Positions 45,817-64,000 of a stretch of DNA of 64,000 nucleotides are shown here, in pieces. The stretch's first letter is position 1. The number at the start of each line of letters is the position of its first letter. The translations under genes were made by a program, and so were the position numbers. The stretch comes from Dehalococcoidia bacterium (lineage in GTDB: Bacteria; Chloroflexota; Dehalococcoidia; DSTF01; RBG-16-68-14): NCBI GenBank assembly GCA_040882355.1, contig JBBEBM010000004.1:1-64000 (forward strand), read 5' to 3'. The notes beneath the pieces are model-generated. The model made no database searches and was not told the DNA's origin. It was given only the letters and a program-made list of their open reading frames with translations.

Positions 45817-45844
45817 TTGACACGCGCGGTTCCGGTGTTATGCT
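45817..45844 (+). promoter_or_regulatory. Sigma70 promoter for the giant surface protein
   Basis: TTGACA-N16-TATGCT with TG extension; upstream hairpin GCCTTCGTT...AACGAATGAAGGC. Confidence 0.55.
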
Positions 45845-45884
45845 AAGACGTACCCCGCCTAATAGCTTTGCTAGAGGTGAGTCT

Positions 45885-48800
45885 TTGCGCTCCCGGCGAG
45901 GTCTTCTGCTCCCCATCATCTGCGGCCTGATTGCGGCCAGCGGCATCTTCTGGTCGCCCGCCGCGGCGAACCCGCCCTCGACTGTTGGGGGCGTTATCAG
46001 CGTCTCGCTCGGCGGTCACCATACCTGCGCCCTGGTCGAAGACGACCCGGGAACGCCCGGCTACGGCGTCAAGTGCTGGGGCGGCAACAGCGCGGGCCAG
46101 TTAGGCATCAACACACAATCCGATTTCTCGGCACCCGTCAGCGTCTCGGGCCTAGAGGGCGGCGTCACGGCGATCGCGACCGGCTTCCAGCACACCTGCG
46201 CCGTCATGACGACGACTCGCCTCAAGTGCTGGGGCGACAACAGCTATGGCCAAGTTGGAAATGGCACCAGCGGCAACGTGTGGCTCGGCGCTATCGAGGT
46301 GTGCACGAGCGGCGCCGGCTTCGGCTGCGTCGGAGGCGCGCCGCTCACGGGCGTCGTCGGCGTCAGCGCCGGCGACCGCCACACCTGCGCCCTGATCGAC
46401 GACGGCCCGGAGGCGACGGGCGAGACGCTTCGGTGCTGGGGCGGCAATCACCTGGGCCAGTTAGGCACGGGCGACGGCGGCGACGACGCGCCGTTCCAGC
46501 CCCTGCCCGTCGCGCCATCAGGGCCCAACTTCATCAGCGTCTCGGCGGGCGGCCACAACACGTGCGCGGTCAACACGTCGGGCGTGCTGTTCTGCTGGGG
46601 GAACAACTTCAGCGGCCAGCTCGGTACCGGCAGCGCACCCGACACGGACTCGAGCAACGGCAGTATGGGTAGCAGCGATCCGTGCTCGGCCGGCATCGAA
46701 GACGAGGCGATGTGTATCTCGACGCCGGTCGCCGTCCCCGGTCTCGTCCCAACCGTTGGCGTCAGCGCGGGCCAGACGACATGCGCGCTGACCACCGCCG
46801 GCGGGGCCAAGTGCTGGGGCTTCAACGCCCACGGCGAGGTGGGCAACGGCACACGGGTAACCGTGATCGACGAGCCCCAGAACATCGGCTTCGCAGAACC
46901 GGACCCTCAGGACGTGACCGGGCTCGCCAGCGGCGTCGCCCAGATCGGCGATAGCTGCGCGCTTACCGTGACCGATGCGGTCCTCTGCTGGGGCGACAAC
47001 ATCTACGGCGGCGTCGGCTCCGGAGTGCTTGACCTTTCGGATTCCAATGAGCTGACCCCGGTCACCGTGGTTGGGCTCAGCAGCGGCGTCGAGTCCATCG
47101 GAACGAGCGCGCACAACTGCGCTGTCATGACGGTGGGCAACGTGAAGTGTTGGGGCCTGAACAACTTCTACCAGCTCGGTGCGCCGTCGGACATATGCTA
47201 TCCGGGCGGTGTCTTCGCCCAGCCCTGCAGCCCAACGCCGCTCGAGGTCCTCTTTGCCTTCGTCGTCAACTCCACGGATGACGAAGGCGACTTCTCGACA
47301 GCCGACAACATCTGCGAAGCCGACGCGCCCGGCGTTCCTGGCGTCCGTTGCACACTGGCGGCTGCCATCGAGCAGGCGAATGCAACGCCCGGGCCGAATA
47401 CGATTCTTTTCGGCATTCCGGGCACGGCACCGTTCGTGTTCCAGCCGGGCTCAGCATACCCGGAGATCACCGAGCGCCTGACCATCGACGCCACGAGCCA
47501 GCCGGGCTACGCACCGGGTGCCCCGGTTGTCGTCCTCGACGGCACGAATGCCGGCGAAGACGTGGATGGATTGCGTCTGAGTGGCGGCCTGAGCAAGGTA
47601 CGCGGGCTGGTCATTGGGGGCTTCTCGCGGGACGGAATCGTCCTCGCGGATTCGAGCGCGACCGTCGTCGAAGCGAACTTCATCGGCGTGAACCAGACTG
47701 GCGCCGCGGCGTTCGGCAACGGCGGCGCTGGCATTGCGGTCACGAATTCAGCGCACAACATCATCGGCGGCATCACGAAGGCCAACGTGCGTAACGTGAT
47801 CTCGGGCAACGGTGGGTCGGGCATCGGTATCTCCGGCGGCGAATCGGACGGCAACGTAATCCAAGGCAACTACATCGGCACACTCGCGGATGGCGAGACG
47901 GCGCTCGGCAATGACCTCGGTATCCACGTCACCAGTTCGGGCGGCACAATCGACGGCACGATCATCGGCGGCGACGATCCAGCCGCGCGCAACGTCATCT
48001 CGGCAAACGAGGATTACGGTGTCATCATCGAGCACGGCGTCGCCAGCGTGATCGAGAACAACCGCATCGGCACCGACTTTTCCGGCCTGCACACCGACCC
48101 GGACGGCCAGCCGGACACCGGCGACGAGCTCGGCAACGGCTCCGCCGGGGTCGGCCTGTCCGGCGGCACGGAAAGTACTCATGTGCGCAACAATGTGATC
48201 TCCGGCAACCAGGTGGGCGTCTATATCTTCACACCCAACCCAGCCTCGCCGAGTAGCTTCAACCTGGTCGTCGGGAACAAGATCGGCGTCGACGTGCTGG
48301 GAGAGACGGCGTTGCCCAATCAGGGTGACGGCGTGAACATCGAGAACTCGCCAGCCAACTCGATCGGCAGCCCGATCGATGGCGAGGCGAACGTGATCTC
48401 CGGCAACGGCGCGTCCGGCGTGGAGATCGTCGGCGCAGCGTCGACGAGCAACGACGTCCGTGCCAACTTCATCGGCACGGACGATGACGGCCAGGAGGCG
48501 GTCGCCAACGGCCTCTTCGGGATAGCGCTCACAGGCGGCGCCACGAGCAACACAATCGGTGACGACACGGCGGCCAGCTTCGGCAACGTCATCGCCGGCC
48601 ATGAAACAGCCGGGGTCTTCATCGAGGCGGGCAGCGACAGTAACGTTATCGGTCACAACTACATCGGTACCGACTTCTCAGGTACCGAAACCGACCCGGA
48701 CGGCGTGCCCGCCAGCGGCGACGAGCTGGGCAACGACGTCGGCGTCTACATCCAGAACAGCGACGCCAACCAGCTCATCAAGAACCTCATCTCCGGCAAC

Positions 48801-51800
48801 GGACAAGGCGTGCGGATCGAGGCGGCCGCGGCCGGCCAGGCTACAGGAAACGTGCTGCACGGCAACTACATTGGCACAGAGTTCACGGCCGAGACCGCGC
48901 TCCCGAACGCCGGCGCCGGCGTCGCGATCAGCGCGTCCGGCAACACCGTCGGCGGCGATACAATGGAAGAAGCCAACGTCATCTCCGCAAACGGCGGAGA
49001 TGGCATTTCGCTCCGCGTGGGCGCGACGAACAACACCGTGTCCGGCAACTTCATCGGGACGGACAAGGACGGCCAGACGGACCTTGGCAATGCATTGCGA
49101 GGCGTGCTGCTCGATGGCGTGCCCCTCGCCGTCACGAACAACGTCATCGGAGGCGGCGCGGCCGGCGAGCGCAACATCATCTCCGGCAACTTCATCGGCG
49201 TCGAGCTGAACGCGGCGAACGGAAACACGGTGCGGGGCAACTACATCGGCACCGGGGCCGACGGTGACACCGCCATCGCGAACGACGAGGGCGGCGTATA
49301 CATCGCCTCCGGCGACAACAACCAGCTTCTCACCAACGTGATCTCCGGGAACGACGCGCCTGGCGTCGAGGTCCAGAGTGTCGCGGGAGTGGGAGACGGC
49401 CGCGCGACAGGGAACCTTGTTCGCGGCAACGTCATCGGACTCGATTTCGACGCTGAGTTCGAGGTCCCGAACCGGGGCGCGGGGGTGTTCCTCCTCAATA
49501 CAAGCGACAATGTGATCGGCGGCTCAGGCCCGGCCGAGCGCAACGTCATCGCCGGGAACCTCGAGTCGCTGAGCGTTCCCGATGAGCTGGACGGCTCGGG
49601 CGTCATCATTGAAAGCAGCGACGTGCCTGAAGATGGCGGTGACAACACCGTCCTCGGCAACTACATCGGTCTCGAGAAGGACGGCATCCGCGCTGTGCCC
49701 AACGAGGGCTCCGGCGTCGCGGTCAGGGACTCAGCGGGCAACACCATCGGCGGCACCGGGCCCGGTGAGCGGCAGGTCATCTCCGGCAACACCGAGGACG
49801 AGATCGTCCTCGAAGGGGCCGGGGCGAATGACAACGTCATCGCCGGCAACAACATCGGCACGAACGCGGCAGGCACCCTTTCGGTCACGGCCGCCAGCGG
49901 CGTCGGCATCTACCTGGCAGGCGCCCACAATAACTTCATCGGCGGCACGAACACCGCCGTCGGCGGCCCCTGTGTGGCCGCCTGCAACCTCATCTCGCTC
50001 CTCCACACCGGCATCCTGATCGAAGGCACGACCGGCACGAACAACGTCATCGAAGGCAACTACATCGGCACGAATCCGGCGGCCACCCTCGATCTGGGCA
50101 ACGTAAACGGCGTCGTCATCAACGGCGCCGACAACAACACCGTTGGCAGCACGTCGGCCTTCGGTCGCAACGTCATCTCCGGCAACGACATCGCCGGCGT
50201 CCTGCTCGACAGCGGCACGACGGGGAACACCGTGCTTGGCAACTTCATCGGCACCGGCCCGACGGGCGCTGGCTCGCTCGGTAACGGTACCGGCGTCTGG
50301 ATCGCTGACTCGCCCGGCAATACCGTCGGGGGCACCTCTGCCGGCGCCGGCAACGTGATCGCCAACAGCAGCGACCCGGCGCGAGGGGGCGTGCTCGTCG
50401 AAGGGCTGAACGCGATCGAGAACCCGATCCGGGCGAACTCGATCCACAGCAACGCGGGCAAGGGCATCGAGAACATCGTCGGCGGGAACTTCTCGCTCGC
50501 GCCGCCCGTCATCACCGGCGTGCTTGGCTCTGCCACCGGCACCGCCTGCGCCATCTGTACCATCGACGTCTTCTCAGACGATGAGGACGAGGGCCGCACC
50601 TACCACGGGTCGACGCTTTCGAACGGCGCCGGCGCGTGGACGTTCTTCGGGCTCCTCGCCGGACCGAACGTCACCGCCACAGCGACCGACGGCGACGGCA
50701 ACACCTCGGAGTTCTCGGCGCCCTTCCCGATCTCGCCAAACGACCCCGATGCCGATGGCGTCGCGAACGCCACGGAGAACGGCGCGCCCAACAACGGCGA
50801 CGGCAACAGCGACGGCACGCCAGACAGTCAGCAGGTGAACGTCACCTCGCTGCCCAACGACGAAGATGGCGGCTACCTCACGCTCGCGGTGGCTGCGCCG
50901 GCGCGGCTCGTGGACGTCGATGCCATCGACAAGCCCTCGCCGGGTGATGCGCCGCCGGGTATCGAGTTTCCGCTCGGCTTCGTCGACTTCTCGATTGTCG
51001 GTCTCGACCCGGGCGCAGCGACGAAGGTAACGCTGACCGACCACTCGAGCGCGACTATCGATTCGTACTACAAGTACGGCTCGACGGCAGGCACGCCCGC
51101 CGACCACTGGTACGAGTTCCCCTTCGACGGCACGACCGGCGCGCAGATCGCCGGCAACCAGGTCAGCCTGAGCTTCGTCGACGGCCAACGAGGCGACGAC
51201 GACCTGCTCGCCAACGGCGTGATCGTGGAACCGGGCGGGCCGGGCCGGCACGGCGCCACGCCCACGCCGACACGGACCGCCACGCCCACGAACACTCCCC
51301 TGCCGCCGCCCGCGCCCAAGATTCGCGCCGGACAGTCGCACACCTGCGTCATCACGTCGGAGCAGCGCCTGCAGTGCTGGGGCTCGAACATCTTCGGGCA
51401 GCTCGGCGACGGCTCGACATCCACCAGCGCCCTGCCTGTCAACGTCTGCGCTACGGGCGCCACACCGCCTTGTTCGTCCGCGAACGGTAACGTGCTCACG
51501 GGCGTCAGCGACGCGGGCGCCGGCATCTACCACACCTGCGCGCTGATGACCGGCGGTACGGTGAAGTGCTGGGGCCGCAACGACCGCGGCCAGCTCGGTG
51601 ACGGAACGACGACCGACCGCTTGACGCCGGTCGACGTCTGCGCGGTCGGCGCGACGCCGCCCTGTTCGGTCGCGAACGGAAACGCGCTCACCAACGTCAC
51701 CGCCATCGCCTCGAGCTACTACCACAGCTGTGCCCTCATCGCGGGCGGCAGCGTCCGCTGTTGGGGCTACGGCGGCGGTGGGCGGCTGGGCGTGGTCACC

Positions 51801-53486
51801 CCACCTGAGACCTGCAACGCCATGCTCGAGCCCTGCAGCACGAAGCCGATCAGCGTGGCCATCGTCGGCAGCGGGAACACCGCGATCACCGCCGGTGCCG
51901 GCTGGACGTGCACGCTCAACGGCGGCGCCGCGCCCTGCTGGGGTGCACCAGCCATCGGCGGGCCGATGGGGGCGAACATATATTACGTATGCGCGACGGC
52001 AACAAATCCGTGCGCCGCATTGGGCGGCATCGTCGCGATCGACGCCGGCGACAACCACGGCTGCGCGCTGCTCAACACCGGCTACCTGAGGTGCTGGGGC
52101 CACACCGCCGATGGTCAGCTCGGCCACGGGCCGGGCAACACCGCCGCCTGGAACGTCTCCGTCTACGCCTGCGCCACCGGCGCGACGTCGCCATGCGCGG
52201 TCGGGAACGCCAACGCGCTCACCGGTATCGAGAGTGTGAACGCGGGCGGCGACCACACCTGCGCTGTCATGATCGGCGGCGCCGCCAAGTGCTGGGGCGA
52301 CAACGACGGCGACCAGATCAACCCGCCGGGCGCCGTGGGTAGCGGGACGAATATCGATGCGTACACTCCGGTGGACGTCTGCGCGACCGGCGCCACCGCG
52401 CCCTGCTCGACGGCAAACGGCAATCACCTGAAAGCAGTCGATCACCTGGCGCTCGGGCGTCTGCACTCGTGCGCAGTGATGGATGGCGGCGGCGTCAAGT
52501 GTTGGGGCGCCGGCTACGGGAACACGCCCGTGGACTTCACGCTCAAGGGCCCCACGCCTACGCCCTCGCAGACGCCCACGCGCACACCGACGATCACGCC
52601 GGGCGGCCCGGCGACCAGCACGCCGACGCGCACCCGCACGCCGACGCCCACGGCCTCGCTTACGCCCACGCCCACCTTCACCCGTACACCCACCCGCACG
52701 CCGACTCGCACGCCCACGCCAACGCGCACAGCGACGCCGACGCAGACCCCGCTCGGCGGCGGGACGAAGCGGATGGAGGGCACGACGTCGCAAGGACAAG
52801 AGATCTATCTGGACGTGGCCTTTGACGGCACGCGCGTCTTCCTCTTCCACTACGTATGGACTTGCGGCGCGGGCCCTGTCACAACCGTCGAGGGCAACTT
52901 CACGGGCCAGTACACTGTGACGGGCGGCACCTTCAAGCTGCATTTCATGGGCACGGCCGACACAAGCATCACCGGTACGCTCAACAGCTCGTCGGCCGGC
53001 GGCACCCTCACCGGCCACGTCGACTCTTCCAATTGCAGCACCGGCACCATCACGTGGAACGCGGCCAGCGTCGTGCCCGGGACCGACTCCGACAGCGACG
53101 GCTGCTCAGACGCGCAGGAGAACGGCCCGAACGCGCAAAGCGGCGGCGAGCGCGACCCCGACATCTTCTGGGACTTCTTCGACGTGCCGACGGGTTCGCC
53201 GCTCCAGCGTGACCGGGCCGTGACCGCGGGCGACGTCGCTGCTGTTGTCTCGCGCTTCGGCTCAAACGACGGCTCGCCAGGTTCGTTCAACCGCAACAGC
53301 GACCCCCTCTCGACCCCGAACGCCGCTATCCAGCCATCGGGGGCGCGCGCCAACTACCACCCGGCCTACGATCGCGGCGGCGGCACGCCCGGCGGCGATC
53401 CCTGGGACCTGCTGCCTCCGGATGGCTCGGTCACCGCTGGAGACATCGCTTCAGCAGTCGTCCAGTTCGGCCATAGCTGCGCATAG
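45885..53486 (+). CDS. Giant multidomain surface protein (~2,530 aa): RCC1, CSLREA-like, beta-helix, choice-of-anchor-U-like, RCC1, PT linker, dockerin/flexitail-like tail
   Basis: TTG start after GAGGTG; CWG repeats; VNSTDD...[11 protein letters not shown]; many NVISGN/GNYIGT repeats; YYKYG...DGQRGDDD...[14 protein letters not shown]...WDFFDV. Confidence 0.88.
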
Positions 53487-53565: not shown

Positions 53566-55005
53566 TTAGCGGCGCTTGACGGAGCGGGCGAGCGCGGCCC
53601 TGGCGGCCCAGTAGCCGCACATGCCGTGCACACCGGGGCCGGGCGGCGTCGACGACGAGCAGATGTAGACGCCCTCGGCGGGCGTTCGATAGGGGGACGC
53701 GCTCCGTGTCGGGCGGAAGAACAACTGCAGGCCCCCGGCCGAGCCGCCCGCGATGTCACCGCCCACGTAGTTGGCGTTGTACTGCTGGAGTTGGGCGGGC
53801 GTGAGCACGCTGCGCGCGAGCACCCGGTCGCGGAAGCCCGGCGCGAATCGCTCGATCTGGGCCTCGATACGCTCCGTCATATCGACCGTGGAGCCGTTGG
53901 GCACGTGGCAGTAAGTCCAGGCTGTGTGCTTCCCCTCAGGGGCGCGCGTCGAGTCGAAGAGGCTCGGCTGCGCGACGATGACGTAGGGTCGGTCGGGATG
54001 CTCGCCTCGCGCGACGGCCCGCTCGGCTGCCGCGATCTCGTCCATCGTGCCGCCCACGTGGACCGTGCCGGCGCGGCGGCACGCTTCGGCCTGCCAGGGA
54101 ATCGGCGCGTCCAGGGCGTAGTCGATCTTGAACGCCGCGCCGCCGTAGCGGTATCGCTCCAGCGCGCGCCGGTAGCCGGCCGGCAGTCGCGTCCCGGCGA
54201 TCTCGACCACCTGGCGCGGCGTGACGTCGAGCATGAAGGCTCGCGCGGGCGAGAGCTCATCGAGCGAAGAGACAGGGGTCCCGGTAATCACCTCGCCGCC
54301 AAGCGAGCCGAGGTGCGCGACGAGCGCGTCCGCGACCCGCTGCGATCCGCCGCGCGCGAACGGCCAGCCGGCCGAGTGGCCGGCCGTCGCCAGGACCAGC
54401 GCGAACGACGCGGTGAGCGGCTGATCGAGCGGGAGCGTGGCGTGGGCGGCGATGCCCGCGAACAGCGCCCGCGCCGGTTCGTCCTTGAAGTGGCGGCGGG
54501 CCAGGGACCGCGCCGAGCGCAACGCGCTGAGCCCGAACCGCGCGAGCAGCAGCGGATGGCGTGGCGGCCGGAGCATGGGGCCGAGCAACTGTGCCGCAAG
54601 CTCATCCCATCCGGCAACCAGCGGCGCGAAGAGGCGATGGTAGGACGCGCCGTCCGGGCCTAACCCGCGGGCCGTCGCTGTGAGCGATCGCTCCAGAACG
54701 ACGGCTTCGCCGCCATCGAGCGGGTGGGCGAGCGGCAGGTCTGGATGGACCCAGTCGAGGCCGTGGTCGCGCAGGGGCAGCGTGCGGAAGTAGGGAGAGG
54801 CCGCGCCGAAGGCGTGCACCGCTGAGCAGATGTCGTGAACGAAGCCCGGAAGCGTAACCTCCGCCGAGCGGCTTCCTCCGCCCGGCGTCTCGCTCGCTTC
54901 AAAGACGGTGACGCTGCGGCCGGCCTGAGCAAGCGCAATGGCGGCGGCGAGACCGTTCGGCCCGGAACCGACTACGATGTCATGCGGAGCTTGTCTCTCA
55001 CGCAA
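53566..55005 (-). CDS. Phytoene dehydrogenase-like FAD oxidoreductase
   Basis: VVGSGPNGL, LPGFVHDICSAVH, GGSQ, NANYVGGDI, CSSSTPPGPGVHGMCG; start uncertain. Confidence 0.88.
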   Translation of the reverse strand: MRERQAPHDIVVGSGPNGLAAAIALAQAGRSVTVFEASETPGGGSRSAEVTLPGFVHDICSAVHAFGAASPYFRTLPLRDHGLDWVHPDLPLAHPLDGGEAVVLERSLTATARGLGPDGASYHRLFAPLVAGWDELAAQLLGPMLRPPRHPLLLARFGLSALRSARSLARRHFKDEPARALFAGIAAHATLPLDQPLTASFALVLATAGHSAGWPFARGGSQRVADALVAHLGSLGGEVITGTPVSSLDELSPARAFMLDVTPRQVVEIAGTRLPAGYRRALERYRYGGAAFKIDYALDAPIPWQAEACRRAGTVHVGGTMDEIAAAERAVARGEHPDRPYVIVAQPSLFDSTRAPEGKHTAWTYCHVPNGSTVDMTERIEAQIERFAPGFRDRVLARSVLTPAQLQQYNANYVGGDIAGGSAGGLQLFFRPTRSASPYRTPAEGVYICSSSTPPGPGVHGMCGYWAARAALARSVKRR

Positions 55006-55031
55006 GGGCGGGGTGACCGGCCTTGGACGGC

Positions 55032-55802
55032 CTAGCGCCCGCGTCGAAACGGCGCGGCTACCCAGCGGGCCGGCGCGGCCATGGTGTAGAGCGCCGAGCG
55101 GATGGCGGCGTTGTGCCAGACGTTCTTCGCCTGCGACCACTGTCGCCGGGGGTCGACGCAGGTGATCTGCATCGTCGGCTCGCTCTCGACTTCGAAGTGG
55201 CGAGCCAGCGCCCTGAGCGTGTCTTGCCAGAACTGGTCCTCCTTCGCGTAACCCCCCAGGCTCATGCCGATCTCGTACAGCGGATCACCGGTGCGGACCA
55301 GCACCTGCGTCTGCGCGACCGAGCTGGCGTCTTCCTCGAACGCGCTAAACGTGATCCAGCCGGCGAACATGTGGCCCTGCGGGGTCATCAGCGTGAACGA
55401 TTCGTCGTCCGCGTAGAGCACCATGACGCCGGTGGAGAGCTTGAGCGGCCCTTGCGAGAGGTTCAGGACAGCCACTTCGCCCGGCGCGACTCCGGTGATG
55501 GGGGCGTAGAAGCGGTTGCCCTTGGGCCAGAACGATGCGAAGTTGCTCTTCCAGGTCTGGATCACCTGGGCGGGTGTAGCCGAGCTCCCGCTCAGTCGAA
55601 TGCGGTAGGTCTTCTGCCACATCTTGCCGAAGCCCTGGAGCGGGCTGGTCAGACGCCGTCCCGAAACGTTGATGTTGACCGCGTCGCGCGGCATGTCGGG
55701 CGAGACGACCAGCTTCTCAACGGGCTGCGCCCAGTTCGGACTATCGTCCTGGCGCGAGCTTGCGCCTGTCCCGCCGGTGTCCCCCTGCGAATCGGTGGTC
55801 AT
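55032..55802 (-). CDS. Conserved hypothetical protein (DUF1990-like), last gene of the partner-switching operon
   Basis: AGGAGGGG RBS; PLQGFGKMWQKTY, FTLMTPQGHMFAGWITFS. Confidence 0.75.
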   Translation of the reverse strand: MTTDSQGDTGGTGASSRQDDSPNWAQPVEKLVVSPDMPRDAVNINVSGRRLTSPLQGFGKMWQKTYRIRLSGSSATPAQVIQTWKSNFASFWPKGNRFYAPITGVAPGEVAVLNLSQGPLKLSTGVMVLYADDESFTLMTPQGHMFAGWITFSAFEEDASSVAQTQVLVRTGDPLYEIGMSLGGYAKEDQFWQDTLRALARHFEVESEPTMQITCVDPRRQWSQAKNVWHNAAIRSALYTMAAPARWVAAPFRRGR

Positions 55803-55817
55803 GATCGAACCCCTCCT

Positions 55818-56177
55818 CTAGGCTGTGGCGACTTCTGCCAGCGCCGCCGCTTCGTCGTCGAAGATGCTGATCGCTTCGTCCAAGCGCGTCAGGCCAAAGA
55901 TCTGGCGGTAGTGCTCGTTGAGCCCGACGGCGACCAGGCGCTTGCCCTGCCGGTTCGCGCGGATGAGCAGGGTGACCAGCAGGCCGATGCCGCCACTGTT
56001 CATATACACCAGGCCGTTGAAGTTGAGCACGACGGCTTGCACGCCGGTGGCGGTCGCCTGCGTGTAGGCGTCCATCAGCACGTTTTCACAGAAGGACGTC
56101 ACCTCTCCTTCGATGTCCACGATGCTCGCCGCCCCGTCACCGCTTCGTACGTTCATCGCTACGCGAGCTTCCGGCAT
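55818..56177 (-). CDS. STAS anti-anti-sigma factor
   Basis: LNFNGLVYMNSGGIGLL with phospho-Ser; IFGLTRL. Confidence 0.92.
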   Translation of the reverse strand: MPEARVAMNVRSGDGAASIVDIEGEVTSFCENVLMDAYTQATATGVQAVVLNFNGLVYMNSGGIGLLVTLLIRANRQGKRLVAVGLNEHYRQIFGLTRLDEAISIFDDEAAALAEVATA

Positions 56178-56190
56178 TGCTGTCCCCCTC

Positions 56191-56562
56191 CTAGTTCTCT
56201 GCGGCCGCGGGCGCGGCAGCCCCGGCCAGCGCGCTCGCCTCGTCCGAGAAGATGTCCATGAAATCGGCCAGACGTGTGATCTGAAAGATCTCTCGATAGT
56301 GGTCGCTCAAATCGCAGGCGAACATGCGCCGCTGCGACTTCCGGGCCTGCGCGAGCAACCCGACGATGAGCGCGATACCGGTGCTGTTGATATACGCGAC
56401 ATTGTGGAAGTTCAGCAAGATGGCGCTTGGGCCCGTCTGTGTCGCTTCGGCGTAGGCGGCGTTCAACGTCTCCTCCGCGAAGGCATTAACGTCGCCCTTG
56501 AGTTCGATGATCGCCGTACCCTCTCGCCGGCGAACGGCCGCTTCGAAATGGCTATTCTCCAT
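56191..56562 (-). CDS. STAS anti-anti-sigma factor
   Basis: LNFHNVAYINSTGIALI; IFQITRL; AAGGAG RBS. Confidence 0.92.
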   Translation of the reverse strand: MENSHFEAAVRRREGTAIIELKGDVNAFAEETLNAAYAEATQTGPSAILLNFHNVAYINSTGIALIVGLLAQARKSQRRMFACDLSDHYREIFQITRLADFMDIFSDEASALAGAAAPAAAEN

Positions 56563-58177
56563 CGCCAGCTCCTTCCAACTTGAACACGAGCTCAATAGTG
56601 TGGTGGGTCTCGTCGCTCGTGACACGCATGTCGTCGACCATGTTCTTGATCAGAAAGAGGCCCCATCCGCGTGGCGTCTGCGCGCCGTCGAGCTTGCTCT
56701 CCAGGTCGGGCGCCTCGGGCTCCGGGATCGGTTTCCCGCCGCCGTGGTCGGTGACTCGAATCGCTAGCTCGCGGTCAGACGCTAGGAGCTGGATGGTCAC
56801 GGGTAGGTCGGCCTGGTTCTTGTTCCCGTGCTCGATGGCGTTCATTGTTGCCTCGGCGACGGCAGTCTTCAGGCGCTCCAGCCGGGAGGGCGCGATCGCG
56901 AGGCCCTGGACGGCCTCGGCCACGCGCTCCATCGCTGCGCGCTCGTTGCCCGGCTCGCTGGCGACCTCGAAGTCGGCCAGCACACGCGCGCCGTCATTCC
57001 CAACAGTCACGGAGTCCGGTTCGGGCAGCGCTCTCTTCGAATGGGAGGCGCTGGAGCGCTGGAGTGTGACGAGGGTGATGTCATCCTCCTGCTCGTGTTC
57101 TGGCCCGGCGAAGCTCGAGAGCTCCGCCAGCAGGTGATCGATGAGGCCGGCGCCGCCCGGGTGAGACCCCACCAGCCCCATCAGCTTCGGGAAACCGAAC
57201 ATCTCTCGCCGGGAGTTGTGCGCCTCAACCAGGCCGTCGCTGTGGAAGAGGACGCTTTCGCCGTGTTCCAGGACGACACGCTGCTCCTCGTAGACCATGC
57301 CGGGCATGAGGCCGAGCGGCATGCCTGTGGCACGGATCTCCCTGACGCCGCCTTCCGTCCGCAGGTACGGCAGGTTGTGGCCGGCGTTGGCGAAGTAGAG
57401 ATGCCCGCTCATCGTGTCGAGCACGGCGTACAGGCAGGTGACGAACATGTTTGGCGGGATGTCGGGATGGAGCAGATCGTTCACCCGCTGCAGCACCTGG
57501 CCGGGCGAATCGAGCCGGTCGGCGGCCGCTCGCAGGATGCTGCGCGTGGTGGCCATCACCAGGGCGGCGGGCACCCCCTTGTCACTGACGTCGCCGACGA
57601 CGATCCCCAGGTAGCCGTCAGGGAAGGCGATGAAGTCGTAGAAGTCGCCTCCTACGGCCTGGGCGGGCTGATAGAACGCTCCGATCTTCCACCCTGGCAG
57701 TTCGGGCAGGTTCTTGGGAAGAAGCGTCTGCTGGATGAGCCGGGCGACCTGCAGCTCCTGCTCCATCCGCTCACGCTCCTGGGCCTCGGCCTGCTGCTCC
57801 CGGACGAGCTGCGCGACGCGCACCGCCGGGGCCACTTGCGCGGCGAGGTTCTCGAGCAGCTTGAGATCGTCCAGGAGGTAGTCTTGCTCGCTGAGGCGCG
57901 GGCCCAGGTTGAGGAGCCCGATCAGCTCGCCCTGGCTGCGCAGGGGGACGGCCAGCCGGACGCCGGCCTCCTTGAGCGCCCTCGCGGCCGGCGAGTCGAT
58001 CCCGAGCTGCTGGACGTCGACGGGACCGTCCGCGCTCTGGAACAGCGCCACGATCGGGTCGTTCGGCGCAATGTCGACCACCGGCGGTTCCGCCTGGTTG
58101 CGGATCGTCGGCGCTTCGGCCGCGGTGGGCTCGGCCGGCCGGACCAACCTTCGAATCTGGTCCAAGAATCGTGTCAT
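56552..58177 (-). CDS. Half-GAF + SpoIIE/PP2C phosphatase + RsbW-like HATPase kinase
   Basis: AVPL...LIGLLNLG; VGGDFYDF, GDVSDKG, NAGH, SDGLVEA, DDIT; EATMNAIEHG, DHGGG, RGWGLFLI; ATGA-coupled start. Confidence 0.92.
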   Translation of the reverse strand: MTRFLDQIRRLVRPAEPTAAEAPTIRNQAEPPVVDIAPNDPIVALFQSADGPVDVQQLGIDSPAARALKEAGVRLAVPLRSQGELIGLLNLGPRLSEQDYLLDDLKLLENLAAQVAPAVRVAQLVREQQAEAQERERMEQELQVARLIQQTLLPKNLPELPGWKIGAFYQPAQAVGGDFYDFIAFPDGYLGIVVGDVSDKGVPAALVMATTRSILRAAADRLDSPGQVLQRVNDLLHPDIPPNMFVTCLYAVLDTMSGHLYFANAGHNLPYLRTEGGVREIRATGMPLGLMPGMVYEEQRVVLEHGESVLFHSDGLVEAHNSRREMFGFPKLMGLVGSHPGGAGLIDHLLAELSSFAGPEHEQEDDITLVTLQRSSASHSKRALPEPDSVTVGNDGARVLADFEVASEPGNERAAMERVAEAVQGLAIAPSRLERLKTAVAEATMNAIEHGNKNQADLPVTIQLLASDRELAIRVTDHGGGKPIPEPEAPDLESKLDGAQTPRGWGLFLIKNMVDDMRVTSDETHHTIELVFKLEGAGDGE

Positions 58178-59622
58178 CTCGCTGTATCCATACCAGAGTC
58201 CCGTCCCGAGATCGTTACGAAGCGGCCCGGCTCCCGCCCGTTCTCCGGCGCCGGAGCCGCCGGAGGTGCAGGCGCCAGCCACAGGGAGACGTGGGCCGGC
58301 TGCATGGTCTCTTCGGCCACGGCCAGCAGGTCCAGGCGGATCGCGTCGAGATCGACTTCGTCGCGAATGCGGGCGGCGAACGCCTCCAGCGTGCGGGCGG
58401 CATCGTACTTGCGCCGGTAGAACGCCCGGTCGACGGCCCGCTGGATGCCGCTTCGTGCGGGACGGAACAGCGCAGCGACGGCGAGCGTGGTGCTCACGAT
58501 CGCCAGGTCTGAGCTGCCGGTCAGCGGCCGGAAGAGCAGCCCCAACAGCACCACGCCGGCGAAGTACGCCAGACCCAGGATGCCGGTCAGCGCCGTGTAG
58601 ACGAGGGCGCGATTCACCACGCGGTCGATGTCCCAGAGTCGATAGCGCACCATCACCAGGAAGAGCGTGATCGGGATCGTGGCGAAGAGCGGCGGAAACA
58701 CGCGGAAGAGCACCCTGTTGAGCGCCTCCGACACGTTAGACTCGCCTTCGCCTACGACGAGGAGCGGGATGGCGAAGATGACCGCGACCAAGAAGACGAG
58801 CGTCAAGAGGGAGAGGACGATACGCGACTGCTGCCGTTCTTCCGGCGTCGCCGCGTGGCGCAAGCGCATTGTCTGCGAGGCGATTCCAGCGACGGGGATC
58901 AGCACGCCGAACAGGGCCACGAATCCCGTTGGATCTCCGTGGAACCCCCCCATGATGATGAAGCCGGCGAAGACCAAGATCAGGCCCGGGACATACAGAG
59001 GGATGCGCTGGAATCCGCGCAGCTCCGGGAAGTGGAACGCCGGCCTCCCGTCCGGGAACAGGAGCATGGCGAGGACGTAGGCGACGCCCGCAATCAGGTG
59101 GAAATTGCCGTGCGTGGCCTCGATCAGGACGGCAGGCATGATCTGGAGGGAGGTGTGCGACTGGAGGTTGAACACCGCGCCCGTGCCGACCATCCCGACC
59201 GCCAGCAGCCGCGCGGCCCAGTCCCTCGGCCGGAGCCAGACCAGGAAGACACCCAGCGCGATGTTGACGGCGCTGAAGATGTACTCGAGGATGACCAGGC
59301 CGCCGGGCTGGCGGCCGGCCAGGCCATAGTCCTCCGAGACGACGCCGCGGGAGGCGATCGCCGCCCGGTCTGCCATCACCTCGCACCAGCGTGGAAGGCC
59401 GGGCTGCCCATCGCCGGCACCTTCAAGGGCGGACTTCAGTGACGGGAAGGCGTGCGCGACGGCGGGCGTCAACCCGACCAAGAGCCAGAAGAGTGCGGCG
59501 CCCACGTAGGCAGCGAAGAAGATGAAGAACGCGTAATTTTCCAGCCGGCTGCCGAGGCCTTTGTTGAATCGACGCACGACGGCCACGACGATGACCGCGA
59601 CGAGAACCACCTGGAAGATCAC
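58174..59622 (-). CDS. Multi-pass membrane sensor ending in an N-terminal half-GAF (paralog 3)
   Basis: LLFPDG, RYRLWDID, DRAFYRRKYDAARTLEAF.ARIRDEVDL...QPAHVSLWL. Confidence 0.8.
   Translation of the reverse strand: MIFQVVLVAVIVVAVVRRFNKGLGSRLENYAFFIFFAAYVGAALFWLLVGLTPAVAHAFPSLKSALEGAGDGQPGLPRWCEVMADRAAIASRGVVSEDYGLAGRQPGGLVILEYIFSAVNIALGVFLVWLRPRDWAARLLAVGMVGTGAVFNLQSHTSLQIMPAVLIEATHGNFHLIAGVAYVLAMLLFPDGRPAFHFPELRGFQRIPLYVPGLILVFAGFIIMGGFHGDPTGFVALFGVLIPVAGIASQTMRLRHAATPEERQQSRIVLSLLTLVFLVAVIFAIPLLVVGEGESNVSEALNRVLFRVFPPLFATIPITLFLVMVRYRLWDIDRVVNRALVYTALTGILGLAYFAGVVLLGLLFRPLTGSSDLAIVSTTLAVAALFRPARSGIQRAVDRAFYRRKYDAARTLEAFAARIRDEVDLDAIRLDLLAVAEETMQPAHVSLWLAPAPPAAPAPENGREPGRFVTISGRDSGMDTAR
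58187..58218 (-). promoter_or_regulatory. Direct-repeat box + -10 (copy 1)
   Basis: GTAACG-ATCTC-GGGACG-N9-TATGGA. Confidence 0.6.
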
Positions 59623-59680
59623 GCTGCGCTCTCCACTGCCCTGAACAAATCGCGCTCCAGTTTACGCACAATCCACGCTC

Positions 59681-60943
59681 TCAACTACCATGCCCGCGTC
59701 CTGAGATCGTTACGCCTTGAGCTTCAGCAACACGAAGGCCAGCGGGTGAGGATCCCGCGAGCCAGAGCGAGACGTGGGCCGGCTGCACGGTCTCGTTCAC
59801 GACAGCGATGAGGTCGCCCTGGAGCGTCTCCATGTCGACCTCATCGCGCAAGCGGGCGCTGAACGCTTCGAGCGTCTTCGCGGCGTCGTAGCGGCGCCGA
59901 TTGAAGCGGTGGTCGACGGCGTCCTGGATGCGCTGGCGCGCGGGCAGGAAGAGCGCCGCGACGACGAGCGTCGTGAGCGCGATGGCGACGTCTGAGCCGC
60001 CTGTAAACGGCTCGAAGAGCGGCTCGAGGCCGATGACGAGGCCGAAGTAGGTGAGGCCAAGGGCGGCCGTCAACAGGCCATAGACCAGCGTGCGGTTGAT
60101 GATCCGGTCGATGTCGTAGAGGCGGTAGCGGAGGACGGCGACACCGATGGCGATGGGGAAGCCGCCCAGCAGCATCAGGATCACAATGCTCCAACCCACG
60201 TTGGCGACCGCCTCGACCTGCTGGAAGGCGGACAATGCCATCCCCACGGCCATCAATGCCGCCGCGTAGGCAAACCACTTGAGTTGTTGGCGTTCGACAC
60301 CTTTCGCTCGGACGAGGCGCAGGACCATAGAGAGCGCCGCGCCGACGATGCCAGCGACGAAGAACGGCCACCCGGCAGTCCGCAACCATCGCCCGAGGGT
60401 ATCGGCGCCGCCGCCAGTCAGGGGATTGTCGAAGTCGTCCGACAGGTTGGCGGCGAGTGCCTCGCCAGCGATCCAACAGGCCGCGCCAAAGGTCGCGATC
60501 CAGGCGACGAGGCGCCAGCGCGATGAGAGCAGACGCCCGTTGGGAAACAGCAGTGGCAGGTAGACCATTGGCAGGGTGAGCGCGGGAAGCCAGAGCCACG
60601 CCCCGACCCAGGCCATCCACGCTCCGCCCGCGAGCGAGTCGGGACGTAGGCTGGCGAGCTCTGCGTACGTCTCGGCTAAGCCCTGCGTGAGCCACAGGGG
60701 CGCGAACGCGCACATGATCCAGCCGACCGGGTTCTCCGGCCGGCGTGACGCGATCACGGCGCCAACCGTGGCGAAGGTGAAGAGTCCGACGGCGAAGCCG
60801 ATGGCGAGCCAGACGGAGTTCGCACTAAGCTTTGGGCCCGATGACACGCTTGCGTAGATCAGCAACGTCGCCAGCAGGGCAACGATCAGCAAGTAGAGCG
60901 CCCACAGTCCCCACGCAAGCCGGGCAGCGGTACGCCGGCTCAC
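59681..60943 (-). CDS. Multi-pass membrane sensor ending in an N-terminal half-GAF (paralog 2)
   Basis: GTGA-coupled start; RRPENPVGW, LLFPNG, ERQQLKW, RYRLYDID, YDAAKTLEAFSARLRDEVD...QPAHVSLWL. Confidence 0.82.
   Translation of the reverse strand: MSRRTAARLAWGLWALYLLIVALLATLLIYASVSSGPKLSANSVWLAIGFAVGLFTFATVGAVIASRRPENPVGWIMCAFAPLWLTQGLAETYAELASLRPDSLAGGAWMAWVGAWLWLPALTLPMVYLPLLFPNGRLLSSRWRLVAWIATFGAACWIAGEALAANLSDDFDNPLTGGGADTLGRWLRTAGWPFFVAGIVGAALSMVLRLVRAKGVERQQLKWFAYAAALMAVGMALSAFQQVEAVANVGWSIVILMLLGGFPIAIGVAVLRYRLYDIDRIINRTLVYGLLTAALGLTYFGLVIGLEPLFEPFTGGSDVAIALTTLVVAALFLPARQRIQDAVDHRFNRRRYDAAKTLEAFSARLRDEVDMETLQGDLIAVVNETVQPAHVSLWLAGSSPAGLRVAEAQGVTISGRGHGS
59682..59713 (-). promoter_or_regulatory. 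Direct-repeat box + -10 (copy 2)
   Basis: GTAACG-ATCTC-AGGACG-N9-TAGTTG. Confidence 0.55.
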
Positions 60944-62136
60944 CGCCGCGCCTCCGACGGTCGCAGCCAAAGGGAGACGTGCGCCGGCTGCACCGTCTCG
61001 TTCACGACGGCGATGAGGTCGCCCTGAAGCGTCTCCATGTCCACTTCGTCGCGCAGGCGGGCGCTGAACGCCTCGAGCGTCCTCGCAGCGTCGTAGCGAC
61101 GGCGGTTGAAGCGACTGTCGACGGCGTCCTGGATGCGCCGCCGCGCGGGCAGGAAGAGCGCCGCGACGGCCAGCGTCGTGAGGGCGATGGCCACGTCGGA
61201 GCCGCCCGCGACGGGTTGGAAGAGCGCTTGAAGGCCGACGACGAGGCCAAGGTAGGTGAGGCCGAGCGCGGCCGTCAGCAACCCGTAGACGAGGGTGCGG
61301 TTGATGATCCGGTCGATGTCGTAGAGGCGGTAGCGGAAGATGGCGATGCCTACGGAAGCGGGAACAAGGCCAATCGCCAAGAGGTAGACGGCGCCTGGCA
61401 GCGAGATCCCGGCGAACTCGAGCATAGGGCCGACGAACAGATTGAGGACGAGCGCGCAAAGCGTAGCCCCGACGAACCACTTGATCTGCTGACGCTCGAC
61501 GCTGCCCGCCCGCCGGAAGCGCAGCACCAGAGAGGGTATGCCCATGAGCGTAGCGCCGACAAACCCGAAGAATGCAGCGTCGCCGATCACCTCCATCAGA
61601 AGCCCCGTGCGGGGGATCCCGATGGGGTTCGTCAGCTCTTCGTAACCCTGCACGGCCCCCGGTGTCAGCGTCCACGCGAGCGCAGCTATGATCAGGCAGC
61701 CGGCAGCCAACCGTCCCACCCAGCGCCAGCGCGGCGTGAGGTACTCGCCTGTCGGAAAGAGGAGCGGCAGGAACGCCCCGAGCGAGCCGCCCCCCAGCAG
61801 CCACGTGCTCGTTACTAATGCCACGATTAGAGCGCGCGCCGGCAGGTCGTGGTCGCGGCCCGCTTCGTAGTAGACGCCAGCAAGGTTTGCGATCATCATC
61901 GAGACGGGCGCGAATGCGAACAGCAGGCCGATGCGATGCCCCGGAAGGCGGGCAAGGATGAGCGCGCCTACCGACGCCAAGAGCAAGAATGTGGGAAGTG
62001 CGATGACGATGTCGACTCGTGCCTGGCCTGAAGACAGGTCATCAGTGAGTGAGAGGAGGGCGAGGGTCATGACCCACAGGGCGACCGTCGCAATAACGGA
62101 CGCGAGGCCCACCAAACGTGACCCTCGAGGGCTCAT
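60940..62136 (-). CDS. Multi-pass membrane sensor ending in an N-terminal half-GAF (paralog 1)
   Basis: GGAGG RBS; LLFPTG, ERQQIKW, RYRLYDID, YDAARTLEAFSARLRDEVD...QPAHVSLWL. Confidence 0.82.
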   Translation of the reverse strand: MSPRGSRLVGLASVIATVALWVMTLALLSLTDDLSSGQARVDIVIALPTFLLLASVGALILARLPGHRIGLLFAFAPVSMMIANLAGVYYEAGRDHDLPARALIVALVTSTWLLGGGSLGAFLPLLFPTGEYLTPRWRWVGRLAAGCLIIAALAWTLTPGAVQGYEELTNPIGIPRTGLLMEVIGDAAFFGFVGATLMGIPSLVLRFRRAGSVERQQIKWFVGATLCALVLNLFVGPMLEFAGISLPGAVYLLAIGLVPASVGIAIFRYRLYDIDRIINRTLVYGLLTAALGLTYLGLVVGLQALFQPVAGGSDVAIALTTLAVAALFLPARRRIQDAVDSRFNRRRYDAARTLEAFSARLRDEVDMETLQGDLIAVVNETVQPAHVSLWLRPSEARR

Positions 62137-62193
62137 CGCCGGGCCTCCGACGCTCGCAACCGAACCGAGATCGTCGCCGGTTCCATTGCCTTG

Positions 62194-62988
62194 CTACTGC
62201 ACCTCCAGCGTGCCCTTCATCGACTCGTGACCGTCGACCGCGCAGTGGTAGGTGTAGCTGCCTGGGGCCAGCGCGGGCAATTCAATGAGCTCCTCACTGC
62301 CGGGCCGGACCGTCACATCGATAGCGAAGTCGTCCATGGTGAAGGTGTGCAGGAACGCGTCATCATTTTCCACGACGACGCGCGGCGCTTCGCCCCCGGC
62401 TACCTCGATCTGCTCCGGCGAAAACTCCGTCTTGTGCATCCTCACGGACAGAGCTCCGACCTTGTCCTGGGCGCTGACGGTGGAGCGGCCGGACACGGTG
62501 AGCACGCCCGATACGACGAATAGGACGCCCAGGACAACGACGATCGTCCCGGCGACAGCACGCTCCACGGCCGATGGCGAGAACCGAACGGCGTGGGCTC
62601 GCGTTTCGCGCAGCGCCACAATGCCGCTGGTAACCACGATAACCGATCCGGCGAGCCCAATCATGCTGGGGATGAAGTCGAAGAAGCTCTCCGGATGGAG
62701 GAGCTCGTAGTAGAAGTTGTAGCCCTGGATGAAGAACCAGACGACGAGCGCGAGAATGACCACCGGGATCATGGCCCGCGCTCCGAAACGCAACACGAGC
62801 CCTGCGAGCAAGAAGGTCACCACAAGCGCCGCGCCGCCAAAGACGAGCGCGCCTCCCCAGTCACCGGATATGCCGAACCCCACAGCCTCGAGCACGACCG
62901 ACAGGGCGAGGAGGGTGAGTCCCAGCAGAGCGCCTTGCTTGTAGACGGGCAGCCCCTCTGCAGCCTGGGCGGAAGCTCCCATAGCCAT
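62194..62988 (-). CDS. Membrane protein with C-terminal cupredoxin domain
   Basis: ~5 TM helices, then N.D.FLHTF and YHCAVDGHESMKG (His, Cys, His, Met type-1 copper ligands). Confidence 0.85.
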   Translation of the reverse strand: MAMGASAQAAEGLPVYKQGALLGLTLLALSVVLEAVGFGISGDWGGALVFGGAALVVTFLLAGLVLRFGARAMIPVVILALVVWFFIQGYNFYYELLHPESFFDFIPSMIGLAGSVIVVTSGIVALRETRAHAVRFSPSAVERAVAGTIVVVLGVLFVVSGVLTVSGRSTVSAQDKVGALSVRMHKTEFSPEQIEVAGGEAPRVVVENDDAFLHTFTMDDFAIDVTVRPGSEELIELPALAPGSYTYHCAVDGHESMKGTLEVQ

Positions 62989-63043
62989 TCGTCCGTCTCC
63001 TTTCTCGTGACCGGCGCCGCTTTGGCGCGCTGGCTTCTGTTCG

Positions 63044-63075
63044 ATTGTATGTAGCCGGCGTCACGAGAACGTTAC
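63044..63075 (-). promoter_or_regulatory. Direct-repeat box + -10 (copy 3, operon promoter)
   Basis: GTAACG-TTCTC-GTGACG-N9-TACAAT. Confidence 0.7.
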
Positions 63076-63156
63076 GACAACGATGCCCGGTTCCTGTTCG
63101 TTGCGCTGGGTCATGGTGTCGAGTATCACATCGGTAGGGAAGTGAGGCAAGACACG

Positions 63157-64000
63157 ATGCCACGCCTGGTTGTCCGATTGCTCGGCCCGCCCATCGCCGA
63201 GCTGGACGGCGCCCCAATCGAGGTCGACACCCGCAAGGCGACCGCGCTGCTCGCCTATCTGGCCGTCACGGAGCGGCCGCATGCCCGCGATTCGCTGGCC
63301 GCGCTCCTCTGGCCCGACTACGACCAGACGAGCGCTCGCGCCGCCCTCCGGCGGACGCTCTCAACGCTGCGAAAGGCGCTGGCCAGCGGCTGGCTCACAA
63401 CACAGGGCGACCTGATCGGGCTCGACAGGGATGACCTCTGGCTCGACGCGGAGCGCTTCCATAGCCTCGCCGCGCCGCGCGCCGATCACCCCCACCCGCC
63501 GTCGGAACCGTGCGCGGACTGCCTGGTAGCGCTCGAGGAAGCGCTGGGGCTCTACCGGGACAGCTTCCTCGCCGGCTTCTCGCTGCGCGACAGTCCTGAG
63601 TTCGACGACTGGCAGTCGCTGCAGGCGGAGGCGCTGCGCCGCGAGCTGGCCGAGGCGCTCGACCGGCTCGTCGCGGGCTATATCGCCGGCGAGGACTATT
63701 CGGCGGCCGCGCGCCACGCGCAACGAAGGCTGGCGCTGGACCCGCTGCACGAGCCCGCCCACCGGACGCTGATGCTGCTCTACGCCTGGACCGGCGAACG
63801 CGGCGCCGCACTGCAGCAGTACCGCGCTTGCGTGCGCGCGCTCGACGAGGAGCTGGGGGTCGCGCCACTGGAGGACACGTCGCGGCTCTACCACGCGATC
63901 GTCGGGGACCAGGCGCCGCCTCCGCCGCGGCGCTCGGTCCCCGCGGCGACTACCCCGGCTCCCGAGCGCTCTCCGGGCCCCGGGCCGCCGGCCGCGCGCG
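63157..64000 (+). CDS. SARP/AfsR-type transcriptional regulator (wHTH + BTAD), runs off the window
   Basis: Own translation from ATG 63157: MPRLVVRLLGPP...RKATALLAYL...RDSLAALLWP...LYRDSFLAGF...FDDW...LDPLHEPAHRTLM...ELGVAP. Confidence 0.9.
   Translation, partial: MPRLVVRLLGPPIAELDGAPIEVDTRKATALLAYLAVTERPHARDSLAALLWPDYDQTSARAALRRTLSTLRKALASGWLTTQGDLIGLDRDDLWLDAERFHSLAAPRADHPHPPSEPCADCLVALEEALGLYRDSFLAGFSLRDSPEFDDWQSLQAEALRRELAEALDRLVAGYIAGEDYSAAARHAQRRLALDPLHEPAHRTLMLLYAWTGERGAALQQYRACVRALDEELGVAPLEDTSRLYHAIVGDQAPPPPRRSVPAATTPAPERSPGPGPPAAR

Follow-up and report, generated by a model that had tools for sequence, protein, structure and literature searches.

The stressosome of Bacillus subtilis is a system in which several paralogous sensors feed one phosphatase. 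GAF domains, which are among the commonest sensory modules, are treated as self-contained in a single chain. The PPM phosphatase RsbU is activated when a separate protein, RsbT, binds to the N-terminal domain of RsbU and orders the linker; in the general model for PPM phosphatases, activation follows from the ordering of a helical linker, brought about either by a separate protein such as RsbT or by a sensor domain at the N terminus (PMC12143880). Here we describe a locus in the first 64,000 nucleotides of contig JBBEBM010000004.1 from a Dehalococcoidia bacterium (assembly GCA_040882355.1; this whole stretch is referred to as the window), in which three membrane proteins, designated sensors S1, S2, and S3, each carry near the C terminus the beginning of a GAF domain, and the gene that follows them encodes a phosphatase/kinase, designated PH, that starts with the remainder of a GAF domain. 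An earlier note, made from the sequence alone, had proposed that the GAF fold is completed in trans, so that interchangeable receptors dock onto one shared enzyme. The genes and domains concerned are as follows.

60940..62136, minus strand: sensor S1, 398 amino acids, polytopic, tail-terminated, without an output domain (open reading frame; AlphaFold2 [AF2] model)
60964..61155, minus strand: tail of S1, residues 328-391, a juxtamembrane helix followed by GAF alpha1 and beta1, with QPAHVSLWL (tail hidden Markov model [HMM] positions 1-64, E 9.9e-33)
59681..60943, minus strand: sensor S2, 420 amino acids, GTG start (open reading frame)
59759..59950, minus strand: tail of S2, residues 332-395 (tail HMM, E 1.7e-32)
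58174..59622, minus strand: sensor S3, 482 amino acids (open reading frame)
58276..58467, minus strand: tail of S3, residues 386-449 (tail HMM, E 3.3e-31)
56552..58177, minus strand: PH, 541 amino acids, half-GAF plus PP2C/SpoIIE phosphatase plus RsbW-like kinase (open reading frame; Pfam)
57803..58081, minus strand: half-GAF, PH residues 33-125 (GAF profile positions 63-132 only; half-GAF alignment)
57056..57622, minus strand: PP2C/SpoIIE domain, PH residues 186-374 (E 3.6e-52; Protein Data Bank [PDB] relatives including 3ke6 and 6k4e)
56585..56962, minus strand: HATPase_c_2 domain (RsbW/SpoIIAB-like serine kinase), PH residues 406-531 (E 8.6e-22)

Approximately 8 to 10 transmembrane helices were predicted in S1 to S3 from hydropathy and the AF2 model, and the three proteins matched no Pfam family and no NCBIfam family. 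Identity among their N-terminal parts was 20 to 45%. Over the last ∼120 residues, S1 and S2 were 85 to 93% identical, and S3 was 62 to 68% identical to either, which bears out the earlier description of three tandem membrane proteins with divergent N termini, a common tail, and no output domain. Within the last 124 amino acids of S1 and S2, 113 residues are common to both, and 31 of these 113 are encoded by different codons; this pattern suggests that purifying selection, and not only recent copying, has kept the tail modules of these two sensors alike. The conserved tail at the end of each sensor comprises 64 residues. Positions P57 and W63 were invariant in 25 sequences, and the extreme C terminus is the best-conserved part of the tail. 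In the AF2 model of S1 (mean predicted local distance difference test score [pLDDT] 85.9, from a 69-row alignment), the membrane bundle was modeled with pLDDT above 90 and the tail helices with pLDDT of 60 to 75, and residues 384 to 398, which hold the QPAHVSLWL segment, had pLDDT below 50, formed no strand, and found no intramolecular partner. A Foldseek search with the S1 model returned no solved fold at E≤1e-3, and the S3 tail searched alone matched no family.

The PH protein opens with a leader of ∼32 amino acids containing a short basic helix, and the half-GAF follows. When the Pfam GAF families PF01590, PF13185, and PF13492 were tested, PH matched at profile positions 63 to 132 of 133 only (residues 51 to 118), and neither PH nor the tail gave a full-profile match as a single chain. 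The SpoIIE family (PF07228) matched PH over profile positions 1 to 191 of 192 (E 3.6e-52), which makes this region a PPM/PP2C phosphatase domain, and the motifs GGDFYD, GDVSDKG, SDGL, and DDIT, which we take to be the metal-binding residue motifs, are readable in the translation. HATPase_c_2 (PF13581) scored 77.9 bits against a cutoff of 27.4 (E 8.6e-22). The NCBIfam equivalogs spIIAB and RsbW matched weakly, below their cutoffs, and the kinase is therefore assigned to the HATPase_c_2 family and not to an equivalog. These matches agree with the earlier view that the gene after the sensors starts with a GAF remainder fused to PP2C and an RsbW-like kinase. The interval that the note had given for it (56552 to 58282) is the longest open frame, and the likely gene is 56552 to 58177. 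The best 120 PH homologues listed were 511 to 574 amino acids long and 61 to 100% identical; homologues begin with a variable leader of ∼40 residues, bearing a short basic or aromatic helix, followed by a near-invariant (V/I)(D/E)IAPNDP.

Fused homologues provide the evidence that the two parts belong to one domain. Longer relatives of S1 numbered 1,093 at E≤0.001, and many of them carry the membrane module plus a GAF domain with HisKA_3/HATPase, SpoIIE, or cyclase. Among the best 120, a local tail HMM and a half-GAF query both matched in 14 proteins, always with the tail first, and 15 to 41 residues lay between the two in the 10 that were measured. One of these, P0060, is the exact fused counterpart of the split genes, with an S3-like membrane part, tail, half-GAF, SpoIIE, and HATPase_c_2. 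In P0060, P0025, P0056, P0020, and a fused fragment from locus L009, the GAF match spans profile positions 1 to 132 or 133 and begins inside the tail; thus, the tail and the N terminus of PH together make one GAF domain. The best AF2 model of the fused region of L009 (pLDDT 74.6; the other four models, 45 to 55) shows alpha1 at residues 40 to 55, beta1 at residues 61 to 64, a low-confidence loop, and then the half-GAF with its helices and strands, followed by a long C-terminal helix. A Foldseek search with this model gave 176 PDB matches at E≤1e-3, of which the top ones were all GAF domains (top TMq, 0.5 to 0.59), and a profile search aligned the fused region to the GAF domain of 4mcw_A (E 0.0014), so that the joined tail and half-GAF are a GAF domain both by profile and by fold. 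The earlier note had called for a search for such homologues, and it yielded them. It had also read the tail as GAF helices 1 and 2 and strand 1; alpha1 and beta1 stand, and helix 2 does not, the helices that precede alpha1 being juxtamembrane. In a quick tree of the half-GAF and PP2C region (built from 13 fused and 40 split sequences, the split ones being every third of P0121 to P0240; root arbitrary), the fused forms were scattered among the split forms, with six state changes, at least three of which were forced by well-supported branches.

The split arrangement recurs well beyond this genome. Eighty related loci were taken from species genomes, and 69 could be evaluated; the other 11 were left out because they had no half-GAF match (3 loci), a half-GAF cut by the contig end (3 loci), or less than 1,500 nucleotides upstream (5 loci). 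Twenty-four of the 69 had one to seven same-strand, tail-terminated genes ending 136 to 393 nucleotides before the half-GAF, 15 had tail genes elsewhere within 10 kb, 29 had no sensor within 10 kb of the enzyme, and 1 (L009) was fused. It had been expected that enzyme homologues without neighboring sensors would carry a complete GAF domain. This expectation was rejected: alpha1 and beta1 were missing from them as well, and their N termini were low-complexity leaders. In a set of 1.84 billion, the tail profile matched 13,699 cluster representatives at E≤0.001; at E≤1e-10, the number was 9,245. In the best 150 tail matches, 140 had the tail within 45 residues of the C terminus with no half-GAF after it, and none of the 150 was fused, although split forms are favored in these matches because the tail model was built from split forms. 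Nearly all family members that bear any name are called "hypothetical protein." Rather than the local oddity for which it was first taken, the split is the dominant form of a very large family.

The two parts also occur in the same genomes. Throughout, related genomes are not independent, and the figures are therefore counts and not probabilities. The source genome (3.33 Mb, 93.9% complete) has exactly three tails and one half-GAF, all adjacent. Of 41 related genomes in the same family or order, two had tails (at E≤1e-10), and those two were also the ones with a strong half-GAF match (at E≤1e-50); in the second of them, G035, three tandem tails directly precede the enzyme. In a sample of 201 genomes of the same phylum, a split-type half-GAF (E≤1e-50) was present in 12, and all 12 had orphan tails, 1 to 15 each; one genome had 13 tails in a row, and another had 6 scattered on a single-contig chromosome. 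Orphan tails were found in only 2 of the 189 genomes without a split-type half-GAF, both of them 84 to 86% complete and highly fragmented. Three of the four genomes with only a fused form (G183, G201, and G219) had no orphan tail. A second sample of 201 genomes was drawn from the phylum of the genome that carries locus L055, with both models applied at E≤1e-20. Thirty-seven genomes carried both parts, 164 carried neither, and none was discordant (31 of 31 if six unpublished genomes among the 37 are set aside). The 37 genomes held 348 tails, 1 to 28 per genome (the best 29 candidates per genome were scored), and one main half-GAF each; five had a second, weaker match of the fused type. In all five tested genomes with a sensor-less enzyme locus, 3 to 11 tail matches were found elsewhere, together with exactly one half-GAF. 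The count of orphan tails against half-GAFs per genome that the earlier note had suggested thus came out as many to one, with near-perfect co-occurrence.

Docking of the two parts was evaluated by co-folding PH(1-130) with a 97-residue S3 tail, each with its own alignment, in three runs. The ipSAE was 0.54 (runs of 0.56, 0.54, and 0.54), and the best control scored 0.02; the pLDDT of the partner was ∼60, and at least 88% of the contacts were common to the runs. Of 157 solved complexes, 116 also reached the mark that this pair reached, as did 2 of 215 mismatched pairs; within that group, only 18 of the 157 complexes and both mismatched pairs scored 0.60 or below.

Given the conserved arrangement and the co-occurrence, a functional receptor-enzyme relationship between the sensors and PH is very probable. 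The least probable of the rival explanations is that the split stems from a frameshift introduced in sequencing or assembly, from a pseudogene, or from a programmed frameshift that gives a fused S3-PH protein. The PH frame is open far upstream of its ATG, as this explanation would have it, but such an extension is unsurprising because long open frames are common in DNA of 65 to 70% G+C. Positions 57811 to 58406 are covered, with 0 differences and 0 gaps, by a contig that the same study assembled from another sample (a comparison of contigs, not raw reads), a relative that is 83% identical has the same 541-amino-acid protein with the same start type and with sensors on the contig, and the same split is found in 24 other loci and in G035. 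A frameshift at the junction, which the earlier note had named as what would refute its proposal, is thus contradicted by an independent contig identical across the junction and by the same split in many assemblies. It is also improbable, if less so, that the membrane proteins function independently of PH and merely travel with it on one mobile cassette. The patchy distribution of the cassette in close relatives (2 of 41 genomes) would suggest transfer as a unit; however, sensors scattered over a chromosome (for example, in G210, a single contig) still occur only alongside the enzyme, no genome of the 201 in the second sample was discordant, and fused forms exist.

The most probable of the rival explanations is that the sensors and PH cooperate but without completion of a fold. 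The tail would then be a leftover of an old gene fission that now serves as a signaling or dimerization helix or binds PH elsewhere, such as at its leader helix or linker, and the truncated GAF would be stable alone or by homodimerization, with its own N-terminal helix replacing alpha1. Such a helix, short and basic or aromatic, is common to PH homologues and absent from the fused forms, many enzyme loci have no adjacent sensor, the support from co-folding is weak, and every co-occurrence result fits this explanation equally well. We nevertheless consider it unlikely, although clearly less so than the frameshift or the mobile cassette: conservation in the tail is highest at its C terminus (P57 and W63), the segment that forms beta1 in the fused GAF and that finds no partner inside the sensor; the part missing from the GAF of PH is exactly what the tail supplies; and repeated fusion at the same junction is expected if both ends already sit together.

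Completion of the GAF fold in trans as the contact between sensor and PH is the reading that we prefer, at a probability of roughly 0.58. The domain split, the fused forms, the conserved arrangement, the co-occurrence, and the many-to-one counts are established, and docking, completion, and the direction of regulation are what we infer from them. The earlier plug-in interpretation therefore stands in its fused forms, its many-to-one counts, and the reality of the split, and trans completion keeps its conditional status, with a co-fold ipSAE of 0.54. Several points weigh against trans completion. The co-fold was graded as weak support, its score came without contacts that would place the tail at the alpha1-beta1 position, and the halves of a split domain may score because they resemble solved GAF structures. 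For the fused region, the model was built from 12 sequences, and only one of its five versions was confident. In proteins such as P0001, where one tail is internal, docking would have to take place from a loop, and the conserved short N-terminal helix of PH homologues might take the place of alpha1. Both search models, for the tail and for the half-GAF, were derived from adjacent split pairs, and the E-value thresholds for the sample from the same phylum were set after the matches had been seen. Since the 29 loci noted above have no sensor within 10 kb, operon coupling is not required. Finally, co-occurrence and synteny across genomes that are not independent samples show a functional link and not its mechanism.

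If the GAF fold is indeed completed in trans, the tail of a sensor would slot into the GAF of PH, which lacks exactly the alpha1-beta1 unit that the tails offer, and make the fold whole at the membrane; in PH, this GAF is followed by a long helix, the PP2C domain, and the RsbW-type kinase. The state of the transmembrane bundle would reach the GAF core along a juxtamembrane helix continuous with alpha1, and the signal would then pass through the C-terminal GAF helix and the linker to the phosphatase and kinase. PH would in turn set the phosphorylation state of two STAS proteins encoded downstream, with a DUF1990-like protein as a candidate further output. Because near-identical tails are found on many paralogues and one acceptor is found per genome, the sensors are proposed to be interchangeable or competing inputs to one enzyme. 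The broadest form of the proposal, to which we give even odds, is that fold complementation serves as a plug between receptor and effector in at least three bacterial phyla: in each genome, up to dozens of membrane receptors that look otherwise unrelated would bear the same detachable alpha1-beta1 key and compete for or alternate on one phosphatase-kinase socket, and the enzyme would fold and signal only when docked.

The remaining features of the locus are as follows.

62194-62988, minus strand: cupredoxin-domain membrane protein gene (Pfam Cupredoxin_1, E 2.2e-15)
56191..56625, minus strand: STAS anti-sigma-antagonist-like protein A; likely start, an internal ATG near 56562 (Pfam, E 4.6e-14)
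55818..56177, minus strand: STAS protein B (Pfam; conserved in related loci)
55032..55802, minus strand: DUF1990-like protein P256, 256 amino acids, fourth gene of the core cassette (weak DUF1990 match)
58202..58218, minus strand: 17-nucleotide element GTAACGATCTCGGGACG, ahead of the PH start; in the 3' extension of S3, it is translated as VTISGR (sequence match)
59697..59713, minus strand: second copy of the element, with 1 mismatch, upstream of the S3 start and inside the 3' extension of S2 (sequence match)
62161-62177 and 63059-63075, minus strand: weaker copies of the element, upstream of S1 and of the cupredoxin gene (sequence match)

The cupredoxin gene, the genes for S1, S2, S3, and PH, the STAS genes, and the DUF1990-like gene form one codirectional string on the minus strand. 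The GTG start of S2 overlaps the stop of S1 as GTGA, and the ATG of PH overlaps the stop of S3 as ATGA, which suggests that PH is translationally coupled to S3. PH and the two STAS genes are encoded together and kept together across related loci, the gene content of a partner-switching system. The STAS proteins are short and single-domain (119 and 144 amino acids). The core of enzyme, two STAS genes, and DUF1990-like gene is conserved in almost all loci, and the number and position of the sensors vary. The gene for the DUF1990-like protein P256, a candidate output of the switch, lies downstream of the STAS genes in most related loci (E 1e-50 to 1e-105). A PDB sequence search with this protein found nothing meaningful. 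In the Atlas, one cluster of structural neighbors has this fold fused to STAS. In loci L052 to L080 (Actinomycetes and Dormibacterota), the half-GAF open frame stops ∼430 nucleotides before the STAS gene, and the protein match runs on; it is possible that phosphatase and kinase are separate genes or lie in different frames there. A 2,548-amino-acid open frame at positions 45840 to 53486 on the plus strand is upstream of the cassette region. An Rfam search of positions 55000 to 63300 gave two subthreshold chance matches only.

Among the sensor relatives, P0001, P0010, and P0015 have two full sensor modules per chain, each with its own tail, so that one tail is internal; these proteins probably arose by fusion of adjoining sensor genes like those for S1 and S2. 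The S3-like sensors P0046, P0048, and P0101 bear a cupredoxin insert or domain, and in the window the cupredoxin gene sits 58 nucleotides upstream of S1; it is not conserved in the 80 related loci. The cupredoxin gene and the cupredoxin-bearing sensors may hint at copper or redox sensing.

The 17-nucleotide element sits 25 to 90 nucleotides upstream of the PH and S3 starts, and the window contains four matches to it compared with 1.06 expected. In loci of other phyla, the element is found upstream of the enzyme gene, and 12 of 13 matches were on the coding strand. It is a candidate promoter or leader element. The VTISGR common to the ends of S2 and S3 results from its presence there. VTISGR had been considered as a GAF beta2 strand supplied by the sensors; this was rejected, as the DNA element also occurs in other frames and in sensor-less loci.

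If the plug reading is true, the cassette would be a combinatorial switch with many inputs and one output, and no switch of this kind is known for any sensory domain. A very large family that now lacks annotation would acquire a name and a function open to test, and there would be an explanation of how Chloroflexota, Actinomycetota, and Dormibacterota of soil and sediment could supply a single partner-switching node with as many as 28 inputs or more. The tail (∼30 residues) and the half-GAF (∼95 residues) would be a natural modular docking pair usable for synthetic receptors. A split GAF also makes the passage of a signal through a domain assembled from two polypeptides testable. The coupling of receptor and effector is real and widespread, and it is probably new: no paper describing a split or trans-completed GAF domain or this cassette was found in open-access papers and bioRxiv, in line with the earlier note, whose author was aware of no description.

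The closest relatives of the system are the fused membrane-GAF-PP2C(-RsbW kinase) proteins (P0060, P0025, and the L009 gene), which have the same membrane module, tail, half-GAF, PP2C domain, and kinase at 47 to 63% identity but differ in being one polypeptide with a complete GAF. Completion of an incomplete fold by a segment from another polypeptide is found in the donor-strand complementation of chaperone-usher pilus subunits; that process, however, is a structural polymerization of Ig-like subunits, not signaling, and involves no GAF domain. Rv1364c of Mycobacterium tuberculosis (PDB 3ke6, the best PDB match of the PP2C part) likewise has PP2C and an RsbW-like kinase in one polypeptide, but with a PAS input and a fused STAS domain, and it has neither a split input domain nor membrane partners.

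RsbT/RsbU of B. subtilis resembles the system proposed here in having a partner-switching PPM phosphatase that is switched by a separate protein at its N-terminal region and linker (PMC12143880). In contrast to RsbT/RsbU and the stressosome, the inputs here are polytopic membrane proteins that have neither a STAS nor a kinase domain, the contact is proposed to complete a fold rather than to release a kinase from a STAS complex, and no RsbR, RsbS, or RsbT is encoded in the cassette. The locus is not a stressosome of the RsbR/RsbS/RsbT type, the sensors having neither STAS nor any other Pfam domain. GAF-regulated PPM phosphatases such as RsbZ of Clostridioides difficile and OsaC of Streptomyces coelicolor (both named in PMC12143880) share the order of GAF, helical linker, and PP2C acting on STAS but have a complete GAF in the same chain. 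Thus, the component families are known, and what sets this locus apart is that a sensory domain is distributed over separate polypeptides, with many donors for one acceptor, a principle of coupling that would be new if it is confirmed.

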